Below the pieces are notes generated by a model. That model was not told the origin of the DNA, made no database searches, and saw nothing but the letters and a program-made list of their open reading frames with translations. Below, piece after piece: positions 19,386 through 23,923 of a stretch of 64,000 bases of DNA. The position numbers were made by a program, and so were the translations under genes. This stretch comes from Nannocystis pusilla (lineage in GTDB: Bacteria; Myxococcota_A; Polyangia; Nannocystales; Nannocystaceae), in the NCBI RefSeq assembly GCF_049060185.1, contig NZ_JBMEQO010000002.1. One strand, written 5' to 3'. Positions within the stretch are counted from its first letter, which is position 1. Each line of letters begins with the position of its first letter.

Positions 19386-19469
19386 GAAGGTGACCTCGTA
19401 CGGCGACAAACCGGCGCCACTTTACACCGAGGTCACTGCTTTACGGCGGACAAAATGCACGGCAGAGTG

Positions 19470-20150
19470 ATGCGCAGGATGTCCCGATCGTTTTCTGTGC
19501 CCTGTCCTCGGGCCGGCGGCTCGCTGCTCGGACTGTCCTTGCTGATCCCGCTGCTGGCGGGGTGCCCCGACTCCGAGGCCAAGTTCGAAGAGTTCCTCGA
19601 CAACACCAAGGACGATCGCGACTTCATGCCGCCGCCGCCTCCGGACGTGATGCCCGCGGAGGCCGACATCAGCGGCGACTTCCTGCTGGCAGTGTCGACG
19701 GTCATCTCGCCCGACCTGCCGCTGCAGTTCATCGCCACCAATACGCTGACCACCGACGAGATGGGCAATACGCTCCTCGCGGCCTGCCTGCAGCCGCTGA
19801 GCCTCATGCAGGGCAAGGTCAACGTCCCGCGCGAGCCGATCGGCGACCCGCTCTGCTACAAGGACATCCCCATCGTCGACGGCAAGTTCGACATCGACGC
19901 CGGCCTGGTGAAGGTGACCGGCGCGGCCAACCCGGTGACCGGCGCCGACATCGAGGCGACTCTGAGGATGATCGCCACCATCATCGACGAGGAGTTCTTC
20001 TGCGGTGATATCGAGGGCGATCTGTCGGTGCCCTTCGCGCTCGACCTGAAGGGCTCGACCTTCGCGGCGGTGCGCCTCGGCGATCCCGCGATGCTGCCGC
20101 TCGACGTGACCAAGAACTGCAAGCGCGAGGCGGTTCGCGACAAGGAGTGA
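19470..20150 (+). CDS. hypothetical lipoprotein; first gene of a 4-gene plus-strand operon
   Basis: MRRMSRSFSVPCPRAGGSLLGLSLLIPLLAGC has lipobox LLAGC, followed by PDSEAKFEEFLDNTKDDRDFMPPPPPDVMPAEADISG... An alternative ATG lies at 19455. The stop overlaps the region where the MFS gene starts. Confidence 0.6.
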   Translation: MRRMSRSFSVPCPRAGGSLLGLSLLIPLLAGCPDSEAKFEEFLDNTKDDRDFMPPPPPDVMPAEADISGDFLLAVSTVISPDLPLQFIATNTLTTDEMGNTLLAACLQPLSLMQGKVNVPREPIGDPLCYKDIPIVDGKFDIDAGLVKVTGAANPVTGADIEATLRMIATIIDEEFFCGDIEGDLSVPFALDLKGSTFAAVRLGDPAMLPLDVTKNCKREAVRDKE

Positions 20151-20188
20151 GCGCGAAGCCGCGCGAAAATCACGCAAGATCACGCGTG

Positions 20189-21555
20189 ATGGGACTGGTT
20201 TTCGCCGGCCCGGACCCGATCATCACGTCCCCCACGATGACGACGATGGTCTCGCCCCCACGCCCGCAGGGCAGTGGTCCAAGGTCCGCAACGAGCTGCA
20301 GCAGCTCTGGCACACCGAGCTGCGTGACTCGAACATCCGCGCTGCCTACGTGGTGTGCGCGATGACGGGGACGGCCTACGGGATGGTGACCGCGGTCGTG
20401 GCCGTCTACCTGAACAAGGTCCGCGGCATCGATCCGCCCACGATCGGCGTGTTGGCGATGTTCTTCGCCGCGGGTATCGCCGTCTTCTCGGTGCCGATGG
20501 GCAAGGCGATCCAGCGCTTCGCGCCGCGGATGGTCCTGTCGATCGGGCTGCTCGGATACGCGACGGCCACCGCGATCTTCCCGTTCCTCGCCACGCTGCT
20601 CGGGCTGGGCGCGGCGCGCGGGTTCGACGGCGCTTTTCGGTCGGCGTGTGGGTGAGCCTCGAGACTGTGTTGCTGATGCGCACGACGACGGCGCATCGCG
20701 GGCTCATCACCAGCCTCTACACGATCTCGATGTCGACCGGCTACGCCATCGGTGCGGTGATCGGCTGGATCGTGATGCTGATCTATCCGATGCCGATGGT
20801 GTTCGTGGCGGCGGGGCTGTTCGCCTCGCTGGCGGCGCTGATCGCCTACGTGTTCCTGGACCGCGACATCCAGCCGATCGCCGGCAGCGGTCACGGACAC
20901 GAGCACGCGGACGAAGCCCCGAAACCCGAGGCCGCCATCGAACGCCATCCGCCGATCCTGAAGCTGTACTGGCGGATCAAGACGGCCTGCATCCCGACGT
21001 TCTGTTACGGCTACTTCCAGGCGTCGATGGTGCTGTTCCTGCCTCTGTTCTTGATCAACTCGCGAGGGGTCAAGGAAGAAGATACGGTCTTCTTGGTGGC
21101 GTTCTTCTCGATCGGCATGGCGGCCAGCGTGGTGTTCGTCGGCCGCCTCGGCGATCGCTACGGCCACCTCAAGACGGTGCGCTCGCTGGTCGGGCTCGGG
21201 GTGGTGTTGACGGCGTCGCTGGTCTACCTGCCGACGCTCTGGCTGGTCGCGGTCGCGGTGCTGTTCGCGGGCGCCTCGCTGGCGCCGATCTGGCCGATGA
21301 GCCTGGCGCTGCAGAGCCTCATCGTCGACCCGCGCGACTTCAGCCGCAGCAACGCGCTGCTGAACGGCTCGTACGGGCTCGGCACGCTCGCGGGGCCGCT
21401 GGTGTCGGGCTTCCTGTTCAAGCACTACGGCGGCGAGACGATGTTCCTCCACATCGCGGTGCTGTGGGCGCTGGCGCTCCTGGCCACGCTGGCGTTCCGC
21501 CGCGACGATCCGAGCTTCCGCGCGATCGCCCACGCCCGCGCGCGCGGCGGTGTGA
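20189..21555 (+). CDS. MFS transporter; start and end approximate because of at least 2 frame breaks
   Basis: MGLVFAGPDPIITSPTMTTMVSPPRPQG switches frame at cagggc into QWSKVRNELQQLWHTELRDSNIRAAYVVCAMTGTAYGMVTAVVAVYLNKVRGIDPPTIGVLAMFFAAGIAVFSVPMGKAIQRFAPRMVLSIGLLGYATATAIFPFLATLLGLGAARGF. A second switch leads into SVGVWVSLETVLLMRTTTAHRGLITSLYTISMSTGYAIGAVIGWIVML...LVSGFLFKHYGGETMFLHIAVLWALALLATLAFRR. I count about 12 hydrophobic helices. Confidence 0.7.
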
Positions 21556-21571
21556 GGCTATCCTCGCGGGC

Positions 21572-22617
21572 ATGGGCCTGCTCCATCGTTTGTATGCTCG
21601 CGCCGCGCCCGAGGTCTGGGAGACCGAGACGCGGCTGCTGCACGCGCTCCGTCTGGTCCGCAGGCCGCTCGCGGTGCAGTGGATCGCCACTGCGATGTGC
21701 GACCTCCGCTGTCCGCACTGTTACTCGGGAGCGGGCAAGCGGGCCGAGGGCGAGCTGACGACGCAGGAGGCGATCCGTCTCGTGGTCGACGAGCTGGTGG
21801 CGCTCGGCCGGCCGACCTTCGTGATCGCGGGCGGAGAGCTGCTGCTGCGCCGCGACATCGCCGAGATCGTGGCGCACGCGCGGGCGCAGGGGCTCGAGTG
21901 GGCGATGCACACGCACGGGGGACATGTCCCCAAGTTCAGGTCGCTGTTCGAGCGCCATCCGCCGACTCTGGCGGCGATCAGCCTCGACGGGGAGGCTCGC
22001 CAGCACGACCTGTTTCGCGGGCGCCAGGGCAGCCACGCGGCGGCGCTGGCTGCTATCCGTACGCTCAAGGAGTGCGGCTGCCCGGAGGTGGTGGCGGGGA
22101 CGACCGTGACGCGCGAGAACGCCGACCGCCTGGCCGACCTGTTCCCGCTCGTGGCGGCCTCGGGGGCCGACTCGTGGGGCTCCATCTCTTCGCCCCCGAG
22201 GGCCGCGGGGCCGAGCACACCGCGCTGTGTCCGACGCCGGAGCAGCTGCGTCGCGTGGCCGCGTTCGCCCGCCGCAAGCGCGGGCTGTTCCACGTCGAGC
22301 TGTGCAACGAGTGGGGCAGCGCCGGCGCCGACGATCGCTTCTACCGCGACCAGCCGTTCCTGTGCGGGGCCGGCCGGATCTCCTGCGTCGTCGGGGCGAC
22401 CGGCGAGGTGCTTCCGTGCACCACCACCGACCTGCGCGAGTCGGAGGGCAACGTGCGCGACCGGCCGCTGCGCGACATCTGGACCCGCGGCTTCTCGCGC
22501 TTCCGCAGCGCCGGCCACCGCGAGTGCTCGGACGGCCACGAGTGCTGGCTGCAGGCCCGCAACGGCAACCCGTGCCGCGAGCAGGCGTTCGGCGCCTGCC
22601 GCAAGGAGGCGGTGTGA
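21572..22617 (+). CDS. radical SAM/SPASM-domain protein, a peptide- or cofactor-modifying maturase type; one frame break
   Basis: MGLLHRLYARAAPEVW...VQWIATAMCDLRCPHCYSGAGKRAEGELTTQEAIRLVVDELVALGRPTFVIAGGELLLRRDIAEIV... carries the CX3CX2C radical-SAM cluster motif. The C-terminal half is in another frame (ORF 21679..22617): ...LHLFAPEGRGAEHTALCPTPEQLRRVAAFARRKRGLFHVELCNEWG...FLCGAGRISCVVGATGEVLPCTTTDL...CSDGHECWLQARNGNPCREQAFGACRKEAV. These are SPASM-type auxiliary-cluster cysteines. Confidence 0.8.
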
Positions 22618-23923
22618 GGCGCTGGTGGCTCGATCTGGGCTCGTTCGCCGTCGCGCTCGCGCTGGCCGCGGCGGTGGTGCTCCGCTGGCGCCGGGGCCAG
22701 GTGACGCTGCTGTCGAGCACGGCGGCGCCGGCGATCCGGCTGCTCGCGCTGCTGATCGTGTTCGTGCAGGGCTGCGCCGATCGGCTGCGCGGGCGCGAGG
22801 AGCCGGACGGGCAGGGGGCGGTGCCGGGCTCTCAGGACATGTCGGTAGGGGCAGGTCCTTCGCAGCAGGGCGAAGAGGACATGTTCCAGGAGACAAGTGC
22901 TCCGGAGAGCGCCGCGCCGGCGCTCGGGCCCGACGTGTTTCCGCTGGCCGACGAGGCGGCGCTGGGCCGGTGGGCGCGGCTCGTCGCCGACGACGGGTTC
23001 GACGTCGGGTCGGGCAAGCGCTTCGCGCTGGCGCTGGTGCAGGTGCCGGAGGCGACGCCGGCCCAGGACCCGCGGTGGCTGCAGGTCGCGTCCGCCCTCG
23101 AGGTGCTGGCCGACGCGGCCGGCGGTACCGAGGGCGAGGCGTTTCGCAGCCGGTGGCGGGCGCACGTGGAGGCGCGCAAGGCGGGCGGTAGCGAGACGAG
23201 CGCGGAGCTGCAGGCGCTGCTGAGCAGCATGGAGGCGCTGCCGCTCTACCACGCAGGGCTGGCGGGCTACGTGTGGCGCCGGGCGGCGCCGCTACCGGCG
23301 AGCGCGCCTGTGCGGGCGGAGCTGTTCGGGCGGCTCGAGCGGCACCTGCGGGCCTGCGAGGCGCTGCTGAAGGGCCAGTTCGAGACGGGGCCGATCGAGT
23401 TCACGGCGTGGCGCAGCAAGGCGGCGCCGCCGGTCGGCTACTCGGGGCTGAAGGTGCCGAAGGGCCTGCTGGCGGCGGCGAAGGGGCATTATCCGCAGAT
23501 CGACGCGGGCACGTGGACGACCGAGGCGACGCTGACTCTGACGGCGGTCGACGCGGGCGTGACGCTCTGCGCGCGGGCCGTGCGTCGGAGCTGCCGGCCG
23601 GGCAACGGTTCACTCTCGGCCGGCTGGACGTGCTGTCGAGCGGGAGGCCGGCGAAGCTGCGCCACGATGAACTCGGGGACATGTCCCTCGGTGCAGGCGC
23701 TGTCGTGACCGCGTGGGACATCGGCTCGCGGCTCGCGGGGCCCGGGCGCGAGGGGGTGCAGGCGAAGGTGGCAGCGGCCCAGGGCGGCGACACGAAGGCG
23801 CTCGAGCAGCTGCAGTCGATCCTGCCGGCGGCGCACCTCGAGATCCGCCGCGCGCTGGCCGAGAAGCCGCAGGCGCCCGGCTCGCCAGGGCTGCGCACGC
23901 TGCTCGAGCTGTTCGACGGGTAG
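22614..23923 (+). CDS. hypothetical membrane protein (two N-terminal TM helices) translationally coupled to the radical SAM gene; one frame break
   Basis: GTG at 22614 overlaps the radical-SAM stop (gcgGTGTGA). AAGGAGG lies at 22603-22609. The protein begins VRRWWLDLGSFAVALALAAAVVLRW...AIRLLALLIVFVQGC and is then soluble (…ALGRWARLVADDGFDVGSGKRFALALVQVPEATPAQDPRWLQVASALEVLADAAGG…). The C-terminus is in another frame (ORF 23273..23923): ...LGDMSLGAGAVVTAWDIGSRLAGPGREGVQAKVAAAQGGDTKALEQLQSILPAAHLEIRRALAEKPQAPGSPGLRTLLELFDG. Confidence 0.5.

Follow-up and report, generated by a model that had tools for sequence, protein, structure and literature searches.

A degenerate SPASM/Twitch-type radical SAM enzyme and its linked partner protein: a two-gene module of Myxococcota and Planctomycetota with a possible role in partner maturation

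Cytoplasmic SPASM-type radical SAM enzymes that mature a co-encoded exported protein have established precedents in AtsB/AtsA and QhpD/QhpC. AtsB and anSMEcpe (PDB 4k36-4k39) carry no RRE and are encoded beside their exported protein substrate, while QhpD acts before export on QhpC, the quinohemoprotein amine dehydrogenase small subunit, in which it installs cross-links, so that a dedicated radical SAM/SPASM enzyme matures a single co-encoded protein bound for the periplasm. QhpC itself is small and Cys-rich, and its gene is one of several in the qhp operon, which also encodes a peptidase and an exporter. Other enzymes of this kind act on short peptides: SkfB, the sporulation killing factor thioether synthase (PDB 6efn), is a Twitch-domain maturase that devotes a domain of about 100 aa at its N-terminus to peptide recognition and modifies the short peptide SkfA, and the Lys-Trp cross-linking enzymes StrB/SuiB, DarE and WgkB possess RRE domains and modify short leader-bearing peptides. 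Finally, the radical SAM/SPASM family TIGR04133 (rSAM_w_lipo) is paired with a lipoprotein family.

The locus described here lies in a 64-kb stretch of Nannocystis pusilla DNA (the window), in which an earlier note had recognized four tightly linked plus-strand genes and suggested that they could form a modification and export module. The features are as follows.

17913..19409, minus strand: FadL/Toluene_X-type outer-membrane channel, intact 498-aa ORF, divergent from the lipoprotein gene
19470..20150, plus strand: predicted lipoprotein, 226 aa, intact ORF in frame 0, lipobox LLAGC at 19551-19565
20237..21554, plus strand: MFS transporter, about 440 aa when corrected, broken by deletions of 1 nt (at about 20255 and 20634) and 2 nt (at about 21537)
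21572..22617, plus strand: radical SAM enzyme, 348 aa when corrected, 1-nt deletion at about 22180 beside a G run, CX3CX2C at 21698-21721
22603..22617, plus strand: translational-coupling junction, AAGGAGG at 22603-22609, partner GTG (22614-22616) overlapping the radical SAM TGA (22615-22617)
22614..23923, plus strand: partner protein of unknown family, 436 aa when corrected, 1-nt deletion at about 23567
22758-22775, plus strand: VFVQGC, end of the partner h-region
23406-23432, plus strand: AWRSKAAPP, folded C-terminal domain of the partner
23502-23516, plus strand: DAGTW, same domain
23618-23632, plus strand: GRLDV, same domain
23941..23995, no strand assigned: two tandem strong hairpins of GACATGTC-type palindromes, between the convergent partner and purT genes

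GC3 frame analysis supported plus-strand coding throughout 19.5-23.9 kb, with the four genes present in the proposed order; however, the last three are not intact ORFs, which had been overlooked. Mapping against the intact orthologues of Nannocystis sp. RBIL2 located the missing nucleotides listed above, three sites in the MFS gene and one each in the radical SAM and partner genes, four of the five within a homopolymer or CG-repeat run; the window as a whole carries many single-base deletions in homopolymers. As the orthologues are intact in Nannocystis sp. ILAH1 and RBIL2, and as the flanking purT gene has the same kind of defect at 24471, we read the breaks, from these comparisons, as assembly errors. 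Frame switches inside the MFS, radical SAM and partner genes, three of the four, might suggest a set of pseudogenes decaying in this strain, but this seems very unlikely: all coding indels are deletions of 1-2 nt, purT is an essential-type gene, frame switches are spread along the whole window, GC3 does not leave the range 0.9-1.0 where the breaks occur, and the corrected radical SAM protein matches an intact orthologue (P0001) over 100% of its length with 99% identity.

The assignment of the third gene to the radical SAM/SPASM enzymes was borne out by Pfam (Radical_SAM, 9.3e-17; SPASM, 2.2e-07, 31.5 bits against a cut-off of 21.5). No curated NCBIfam family cut-off is reached by the protein. 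The highest score is that of AhbD (129 bits, cut-off 500), and the scores and cut-offs in the list that includes AhbD, NirJ2, NirJ1 and NirJ are 129/500, 118/500, 99/650 and 98/515; MftC (110/265), SkfB (66.6/300) and WgkB (49/650) also remain far below. The subfamily comparison suggested earlier thus places the enzyme outside AhbD/NirJ, PqqE and MftC. TIGR04133 is among the better matches (114 bits), and it resembles the locus in pairing a radical SAM/SPASM gene with a predicted lipoprotein; the enzyme is not a member of it, the cut-off being 425, and no NCBIfam model matches the upstream lipoprotein or the partner.

In 79 sequences of the enzyme, Cys43, Cys47, Cys50, Cys265, Cys283 and Cys325 are invariant, Cys335 is kept in 73/79 and Cys272 in 69/79, and the SPASM half-motif CX2CX5CX3C occurs in none. 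Judged by these residues, the C-terminal SPASM/Twitch-type domain is degenerate, and it probably holds one auxiliary cluster. The best match, both in sequence (phmmer 2.3e-16; profile 2.3e-27) and between the AF2 model (pLDDT 90) and solved structures (Foldseek E 2e-15, TM 0.67), is SkfB, with which the enzyme shares the CX3CX2C core, a C-terminal domain starting with CX9-15GX4C and a reduced auxiliary Cys set. Unlike SkfB, it has only about 40 residues before the cluster motif, which begins at residue 43 and leaves no room for a peptide-recognition or other RRE-sized N-terminal domain; it is accompanied by no peptide gene, and the two proteins are only 23% identical. After SkfB, the solved sequence relatives are PqqE and CteB, with the non-peptide enzymes BlsE and Tes and then anSME also in the list, and the structural neighbours are CteB, BlsE, DesII, SuiB, PqqE and anSME (TM 0.61-0.66 for SuiB and anSME). 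The sequence similarity to anSME is weak (E 2e-6), and the SPASM motif of anSME is complete, with 7 Cys and two auxiliary clusters.

The partner gene is found directly downstream of the radical SAM gene in 47 of the 48 loci with enough sequence to be evaluated, covering Nannocystaceae, Polyangia, Kofleriaceae, Gemmataceae, Phycisphaerae and Pirellulales; the single exception is locus L027. In the window the overlap preceded by AAGGAGG, pointed out earlier, can be read directly from the sequence. Stop and start overlap by the same 4 nt (ATGA/GTGA) in 28 related loci; eight loci have an in-frame fusion, and in the remaining linked loci a short gap separates the genes. Further fusions were found in P0142 and in at least 10 of 150 listed representatives (687-817 aa), with the architecture radical SAM domain, linker, h-region, partner domain. 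Across 52 loci the pair has no other conserved neighbour; the largest other cluster consists of generic Ser/Thr kinases (15 loci).

The upstream genes behave differently. The first, called a lipoprotein gene in the earlier note, encodes a predicted lipoprotein with a lipobox and without a match in Pfam, NCBIfam or PADLOC; the ATG at 19455, previously taken as its start, is an in-frame alternative. The second does encode an MFS transporter (MFS_1, PF07690, E 2.9e-50 on the corrected sequence), with an orthologue-supported start (MTTMVSPP) at 20237, so that the lipoprotein stop does not abut it but is followed by a gap of 86 nt. The MFS stop (21552-21554) does lie 17 nt before the radical SAM ATG, as stated, and because of this short gap in Nannocystis the two genes may be co-transcribed. 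Lipoprotein, MFS transporter and divergent FadL-type porin (PF03349 Toluene_X was detected in its orthologue in loci L001/L002) are found together in no more than five loci, all from very close Nannocystis genomes (L005, L006, L007, L011 and L050), the only ones in which lipoprotein homologues were found; in the other 47 loci, other Nannocystis MAGs included, lipoprotein and MFS genes are not found beside the enzyme. Therefore, the role of conserved exporter in this system does not fall to the transporter, nor that of conserved substrate to the lipoprotein. Synteny is thus kept by the enzyme and its partner and lost by the lipoprotein and MFS genes, and the four-gene operon is not supported: the functional unit is the two-gene module, and the three upstream genes are Nannocystis-specific neighbours outside it.

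The partner, given earlier as 430 aa, has 436 aa after correction and 438 aa in ILAH1. It was said to lack recognizable domains, and indeed no family was found for it in Pfam, NCBIfam or PADLOC, and no significant match in the PDB; by these comparisons it is a new protein family, with homologues in 209 clusters among 1.84 billion representatives. Its features follow the order N-terminal hydrophobic helix, Arg-rich loop, signal-like h-region, disordered linker and folded C-terminal domain, the latter modelled mostly with pLDDT above 90 (residues 110-438; 82 overall, AF2). The folded domain has no conserved Cys and contains a near-invariant loop, A-W-[MR]-S-K-A-[GA]-P, in which W268 is kept in 147 of 149 sequences, S270 in 128/150, K271 in 145/151 and P274 in 131/149; R248, W303, R339 and D341 are further conserved charged or aromatic residues. 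Two N-terminal hydrophobic segments are present in 80 of 99 full-length partners, preceded by an N-tail of about 2 aa on average and separated by a loop averaging 12 aa, with 3.5 K/R and 0.2 D/E; single-segment partners and fusions have the second segment only. This segment ends with [LV]-x-[GA]-C in Myxococcota, where a Pro/Ala/Ser/acidic tether follows, and with G/A-x-G/A in Planctomycetota. Based on the positive-inside rule and these signal-like motifs, the C-terminal domain is probably exported. The partner differs from QhpC in its size (above 400 aa), its folded domain without conserved Cys and the absence of other conserved genes around it, and from AtsA in the lack of a sulfatase fold and of the C/S-x-P-x-R motif, neither of which was found.

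The earlier suggestion that the enzyme acts on the downstream membrane protein is favoured by the coupling or fusion of the two genes across two phyla, and we tentatively propose that the enzyme is a dedicated maturase of its exported partner. The cytoplasmic enzyme would bind SAM at the CX3CX2C cluster, generate the 5'-deoxyadenosyl radical and modify the partner polypeptide either ahead of its export or while export is under way. The 4-nt overlap, or outright fusion in some lineages, would deliver enzyme and substrate together, and the conserved Arg-rich cytoplasmic loop, or the covalent link in the fusions, could take the role that leader peptides have in RiPPs. The most likely target would be the surface loop A-W-[MR]-S-K-A-[GA]-P-P, and the chemistry possibly a cross-link or side-chain oxidation: at the level of sequence, W-x-S-K resembles the Trp/Lys pairs joined by StrB/SuiB, DarE and WgkB, of which StrB/SuiB and DarE offer precedents for Trp-Lys chemistry. 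The modified partner would then be translocated and released or anchored, in Myxococcota by signal peptidase II at the lipobox-like [LV]-x-[GA]-C and in Planctomycetota by signal peptidase I, with small residues at -3/-1.

Several observations count against a maturase of the partner. The partner is missing downstream of the enzyme in L027, and the adjoining partner copy in L044 lacks W-x-S-K; and an enzyme fused to its stoichiometric substrate would be unusual. Moreover, the enzyme is far more conserved (56-70% identity between phyla) than the partner (21-40%; 60% and 26%, respectively, between Nannocystis and a Gemmataceae MAG), which fits equally well a somewhat less probable alternative, in which the substrate of the enzyme is a small molecule, a cofactor or a lipid of the membrane, and the partner is an obligatory subunit but not a substrate, serving as membrane anchor, scaffold or periplasmic receptor to localize or regulate the enzyme. 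The invariant R, K, D and W of the partner could form a ligand-binding site, its helical domain weakly resembles TPR-like scaffolds, the enzyme has no RRE-sized N-terminal domain, and its relatives include the small-molecule enzymes BlsE and DesII in structure and the tetrapyrrole enzymes AhbD, NirJ and NirJ2 among the best partial NCBIfam matches. However, these tetrapyrrole scores are all far under the cut-offs, no further biosynthetic gene is conserved beside the pair in the 52 loci, the folded domain appears to lie across the membrane from the enzyme, and a conserved domain of about 330 aa would be needless for a mere anchor.

A RiPP or cofactor maturation-export cluster of enzyme, MFS transporter and lipoprotein, with the precursor encoded elsewhere or missed, was the reading of the earlier note and is improbable. 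It draws on the 17-nt gap after the MFS gene, on SkfB, PqqE and CteB, all RiPP/cofactor maturases, leading the solved sequence relatives, and on the structural proximity of SuiB; but the MFS and lipoprotein genes accompany the enzyme only in the five close genomes, the invariant companion is the partner and not a peptide, and, in our expectation, RiPP maturases are less conserved between phyla than this enzyme. The same note had seen no precursor peptide, peptidase, PqqD or MftB, and none was found by Pfam, NCBIfam and small-ORF comparison, with no small ORF conserved upstream of the enzyme in 48 loci of relatives and no RRE; the case for a classical RiPP system is weak. Least probable of all is that the enzyme belongs to housekeeping metabolism, making haem or haem d1 like AhbD/NirJ, or that it is an anaerobic sulfatase-maturating enzyme. 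AhbD is the top NCBIfam match, one JGI record gives a homologue the name "AdoMet-dependent heme synthase", in a single planctomycete contig the gene after the pair is hemC, and sulfatase genes lie within 10 kb in four loci; such an identity is nevertheless effectively refuted by the equivalog cut-offs, and by the gene context, without ahb or nir genes nearby and with one sulfatase gene only truly adjacent to the pair; a narrow phyletic range and the partner's lack of sulfatase features also speak against it.

The duplicated GDMS(V/L)GAG segment noted in the partner is present at both sites, as QDMSVGAG (22833-22856) and GDMSLGAG (23675-23698), but both are in-frame occurrences of the palindromic DNA sequence GACATGTC and not a domain duplication; the first copy sits in the disordered, non-conserved linker. 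The palindrome occurs 13 times in the window against 0.74 expected (about 17-fold over-represented). The RNA fold of 23921-24012, spanning the tandem hairpins, has an energy of -47.4 kcal/mol (z = -6.96; 0 of 200 shuffles as good), and the hairpins probably form a REP-like element or act as a bidirectional terminator.

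The region at 19455-23923 holds four plus-strand genes, which were modelled by three-frame reading and alignment to the intact locus of Nannocystis sp. RBIL2:

19470-20150, plus strand, predicted lipoprotein gene, intact, with the canonical lipobox LLAGC
20237-21554, plus strand, MFS transporter gene, interrupted
21572-22617, plus strand, radical SAM (rSAM) gene, interrupted
22614-23923, plus strand, gene of unknown family (the partner), interrupted

The 20 kb around these genes share 94-99% nucleotide identity with RBIL2 and 94-97% with N. pusilla Na p29; the window matches both genomes and is therefore a segment of a Nannocystis (Myxococcota) chromosome. 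Its G+C content is about 72%, at which plain ORF lists are unreliable, and genes were called using third-position GC (GC3) and a seven-state frame model. By both measures, 19.5-23.9 kb is plus-strand coding throughout, with six changes of reading frame, and the MFS, rSAM and partner genes are all interrupted in the window sequence. Wherever a coding indel separates the window from intact orthologues, it is the window that has lost bases, in most cases within a simple run.

Bases missing from the window (in the first five rows, relative to the intact RBIL2 orthologue)
~20255, 1 base, C run, MFS gene
~20634, 1 base, T run, MFS gene
21537, 2 bases, CG repeat, MFS gene
~22180, 1 base, beside a G run, rSAM gene
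~23567, 1 base, partner gene
24471, 1 base, convergent purT gene

From these comparisons we conclude that the frame breaks are most probably homopolymer errors of the assembly, because most of the deletions lie in runs, GC3 holds at 0.9-1.0 across them, the frame model finds similar switches window-wide, and the corrected rSAM protein is 99% identical to that of Nannocystis sp. ILAH1 over its full 348 aa. Pseudogenisation of the operon, a poorly supported reading of the interrupted genes, was rejected on the same observations. Deletion sites include 20199, 20229, 20255, 20634, 21537, 22180, 23567 and 24471, and frame switches occur in the stretches 6250-10756, 32018-34407, 41580-45449 and 47162-52207; deletions of 1-2 nt are frequent in the assembly, mostly in homopolymer or simple-repeat runs, and real genes, purT included, are frameshifted by them. 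ORF-based readings of the window will consequently split or under-call genes, as the homopolymer errors break real ones.

A genome scan with one genome per species yielded 52 rSAM loci, in Myxococcota (Nannocystis, other Nannocystaceae, Polyangia and Kofleriaceae) and in Planctomycetota (Gemmataceae, Phycisphaerae and Pirellulales). When linkage was scored over all six-frame ORFs, a partner homologue was found directly after the rSAM gene in 46 loci, and in one more (L046) by inspection; four loci end too early to judge, and a single evaluable locus, L027, lacks it. A 4-nt overlap of rSAM stop and partner start occurs in 28 loci, and the two genes form a single reading frame in 8. Fused proteins of 687-817 aa are also present in protein databases (P0142 and at least 10 others among the 150 representatives listed). 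The downstream protein ranges from about 335 to 620 aa, most being about 400-450 aa long.

The remaining genes do not share this linkage. The earlier note had proposed a four-gene operon, of which the 17-nt gap between the MFS and rSAM genes and the overlap of the rSAM TGA with the next GTG, preceded by AAGGAGG 4 nt upstream, are confirmed by the sequence, while the claimed abutment of lipoprotein and MFS genes is replaced by an 86-nt gap once the orthologue-supported MFS start is used. The MFS gene product is a genuine member of its family (PF07690, E 2.9e-50, 171.6 bits against a cut-off of 33.4, frameshift-corrected). The operon itself fails in comparison: the MFS and lipoprotein genes, with a divergent FadL/Toluene_X porin gene, stand beside the rSAM gene only in the closest Nannocystis loci (L005, L006, L007, L011 and L050), and the neighbours are unrelated in other Nannocystis MAGs and in every other lineage. 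Clustering of all neighbouring ORFs revealed nothing else conserved save ubiquitous Ser/Thr kinases, and no ORF of at least 20 aa within 700 nt upstream of the rSAM gene is conserved beyond the close Nannocystis group. Since there is no other conserved neighbour or small upstream ORF, the unit is, judged by gene order, a two-gene rSAM-partner module. The four genes of the "operon" stand together only locally, and its look of an export operon is an accident of gene order. A scan of the locus for promoters and terminators gave no informative signal.

Several individual loci deserve mention. In the window, the FadL/Toluene_X channel gene and the divergent gene of the 226-aa family-less lipoprotein (17913-20150) are, throughout the close Nannocystis group, always found together with the MFS gene, and they may form a separate uptake/export unit for hydrophobic compounds. 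In L027 (785-2804, on a 4.2-kb contig of a Gemmataceae MAG), the rSAM gene is followed instead by a minus-strand ORF for a membrane protein. L044 (918-4672), in a MAG labelled Candidatus Nealsonbacteria, has one rSAM gene followed by two tandem partner paralogues; the adjacent copy has lost the W-x-S-K motif (FPRPRSTSIGPRR), the second has kept it (YRPWRSKAGPPP), and the duplicated stretch reaches back into the last codons before the start. The planctomycete-like content of this contig suggests a binning error. Neighbours seen once only are genes for a RoxA-like cytochrome c (L057, 5149-5850), porphobilinogen deaminase (hemC; L058, 8486-9556) and an ECF sigma factor (L059, 5032-5664).

The rSAM enzyme belongs to the radical SAM superfamily (PF04055, E 9.3e-17, 62 bits against a cut-off of 29.5), the best 120 database matches of its closely conserved family being 61-99% identical, and C43, C47 and C50 of the CX3CX2C motif are invariant in 79/79 sequences. 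Its AF2 model (pLDDT 90) consists of alternating beta and alpha elements and is nearest in the PDB to SkfB (TM 0.67), followed by CteB, BlsE, DesII, SuiB, PqqE and anSME; by sequence, the nearest solved relatives are SkfB, PqqE, CteB, BlsE, Tes, anSME and BtrN. Residues 265-320 match SPASM (PF13186/TIGR04085) above the gathering score (31.5 against 21.5 bits). Of the SPASM/Twitch signature the enzyme has the first half (C265-x12-G278-x4-C283), and the CX2CX5CX3C part of the full seven-cysteine SPASM signature was found in 0/79 family members; C265, C283 and C325 of the auxiliary domain are invariant, C335 occurs in 73/79 and C272 in 69/79. A single, Twitch-like auxiliary cluster is the likelier arrangement, as CX2CX5CX3C is absent and few cysteines are invariant. 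The enzyme is thus one of the SPASM/Twitch group, which places it amid both peptide- or protein-modifying and small-molecule members. In the fusion protein P0142, a Pro/Arg/Ser-rich insertion of about 35 residues (at residues ~312-352), missing from unfused enzymes, immediately precedes the CWLQ motif in the auxiliary-cluster domain.

No NCBIfam family model reached its cut-off, and the enzyme belongs to no named family tested.

NCBIfam scores of the rSAM enzyme (bits, score/cut-off)
AhbD (TIGR04545), 129/500
TIGR04053, 121/395
NirJ2 (TIGR04055), 117.9/500
TIGR04133, rSAM/lipoprotein, 114/425
MftC (TIGR03962), 110/265
TIGR04054, haem-pathway rSAM, 99.4/650
TIGR04051, haem-pathway rSAM, 97.6/515
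PqqE (TIGR02109), 86.9/381

These scores bear on several known systems. A housekeeping role as AhbD or NirJ, which the earlier note named as fatal to its reading, was not borne out, and that reading survives in this respect; among the annotated contexts L001-L003 and L057-L059 no ahb or nir pathway genes were seen, and a haem link, resting on the one hemC neighbour, was rejected. Unlike the MftC and PqqE systems, the module has no MftA/MftB or PqqA/PqqD proteins, in agreement with the earlier note. As to the TIGR04133 system, the score is under the cut-off, and NCBIfam gave no match for either the lipoprotein or the partner. Full-length matches to the viperin (pVip) models of PADLOC were not found, the enzyme giving weak core matches only (E 3e-11, 41 bits).

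The partner (436 aa when corrected) has no match in Pfam, NCBIfam or PADLOC, and a Pfam search at E <= 1 with 24 partners gave only scattered single matches. An exhaustive HMMER search of 1.84 billion representatives found 209 clusters at 50% identity, in Polyangia-class Myxococcota and Planctomycetota; a word-indexed protein search gave 20-22 relatives even with a 24-sequence profile. Conservation among 151 sequences is centred on the loop A-W-[MR]-S-K-A-[GA]-P-P, with W in 147/149 and K in 145/151, and extends to R248, W303, R322, R339-L-D341 and G357. In 80/99 full-length partners the N-terminus has two hydrophobic segments, and the loop between them, about 12 residues long, carries on average 3.5 Lys/Arg and hardly any acidic residue; only the second segment is kept in fused forms and in 15 unfused members. 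In Myxococcota a lipobox-like [LV]-x-[GA]-C closes this segment (VFVQGC in the window, non-canonical against the lipobox L-[ASTVI]-[GAS]-C; L-[DEQSG]-[GA]-C in relatives), and a Pro/Ala/Ser/acidic tether comes next; in Planctomycetota the segment closes with small residues similar to a signal peptidase I site. Inspection of the N-termini showed no consistent twin-arginine (Tat) consensus. By the positive-inside rule, the Arg-rich loop would be cytoplasmic and the folded domain would lie outside the cytoplasmic membrane.

In the AtsB/AtsA and QhpD/QhpC systems, the enzyme modifies a still-unfolded protein ahead of its export. The module would work most like such maturase-substrate pairs (anSME/sulfatase and QhpD/QhpC), the enzyme itself resembling SkfB most. 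By this analogy we tentatively propose, as the favoured reading though with less than even confidence, that the rSAM enzyme is a dedicated maturase of the partner, because it is a cytoplasmic SPASM/Twitch enzyme devoid of a RiPP recognition element, with one co-translated or fused, probably exported partner, no other conserved gene and no peptide precursor. The motifs, linkage, fusions and distribution behind this proposal are observed, and its substrate, target site, chemistry and topology are predictions. The partner would be modified before export, while still unfolded; docking would be provided by the Arg-rich cytoplasmic loop or by covalent fusion, and the most likely target would be the invariant W-x-S-K loop. 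A more specific version, which we consider unlikely as it stands, is that a new modification of the A-W-x-S-K-A-G-P loop, such as a Trp-Lys cross-link or Ser/Lys oxidation, is installed in an exported or lipid-anchored protein of new fold, where it could form a cofactor derived from the protein or lock its structure, and that in the fusions the N-terminal maturase, ahead of an internal signal peptide, acts in cis and is cut off on export. No such architecture is known to us for radical SAM enzymes.

The main rival, somewhat unlikely in our view, has a small molecule or lipid as the enzyme's substrate and the partner as a scaffold or anchor; it is favoured by the far higher conservation of the enzyme (60%, against 26% for the partner, between Nannocystis and a Gemmataceae MAG) and by the invariant partner residues, which look like those of a ligand site. 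A RiPP with a remote precursor is poorly supported. Only 42 residues, modelled as two short helices, precede the cluster motif, so the sequence and the AF2 model leave no room for an N-terminal RiPP recognition element of about 80-100 aa; the absence of a precursor peptide reported in the earlier note holds also in relatives, where no conserved small ORF or precursor gene adjoins the rSAM gene. A haem or sulfatase housekeeping enzyme is likewise poorly supported. The anSME substrate motif is C/S-x-P/A-x-R, whereas the partner has W-[MR]-S-K-A-[GA]-P, with no Arg at +4, and no sulfatase fold or Pfam match was found in it. Genes for C-x-P-x-R sulfatases do occur within 10 kb in four loci (L034, 239-1666; L046, 16624-18381; L049, 12425-13873; L053, 6557-8407), only one of them adjacent, and a link was rejected, such proximity being plausible by chance in sulfatase-rich planctomycetes. 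The L049 gene is immediately convergent with the partner gene, probably by chance, yet of note given the anSME analogy.

Many rSAM families remain uncharacterised, and the present module is unusually well delimited, self-contained and directly testable. To judge from the databases and literature searched, neither the partner family nor the rSAM-signal-partner fusion has been described: searches covering coupled membrane partners, the TIGRFAMs paper, and rSAM enzymes together with Planctomycetes, myxobacteria or Nannocystis turned up no account of the rSAM-partner family. If the partner is the substrate, the pair would be a compact enzyme-substrate system open to direct testing, would carry SPASM/Twitch chemistry beyond short peptides to an entire exported protein, and may bring to light a modification or protein-derived cofactor that is new; the fusions across a signal sequence, which recur, would be an uncommon way to modify a protein before it leaves the cytoplasm. 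Defining the family would also improve annotation, since neither Pfam nor NCBIfam has a model for the partner and the enzyme lacks a specific one.

A separate feature of the window is the palindrome GACATGTC, of which 13 copies, many of them lengthened to GGGACATGTCCC, are present where 0.74 would be expected (at 16723, 17893, 21921, 22836, 23678, 23972, 23986, 32002, 32016, 41247, 45984, 47719 and 53046). Three copies fall within the rSAM and partner coding regions. The duplicated GDMS(V/L)GAG segment pointed out in the partner by the earlier note is real, with two copies, and both coincide with this palindrome; the first sits in a disordered, unconserved linker, and duplication of a domain was rejected. 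Where two copies stand 14 nt apart, between convergent genes, they fold into highly stable hairpins, as at 23921-24012 (-47.4 kcal/mol, z = -7) and with the paired copies at 32002/32016; the palindrome resembles a REP-like element or a bidirectional terminator.
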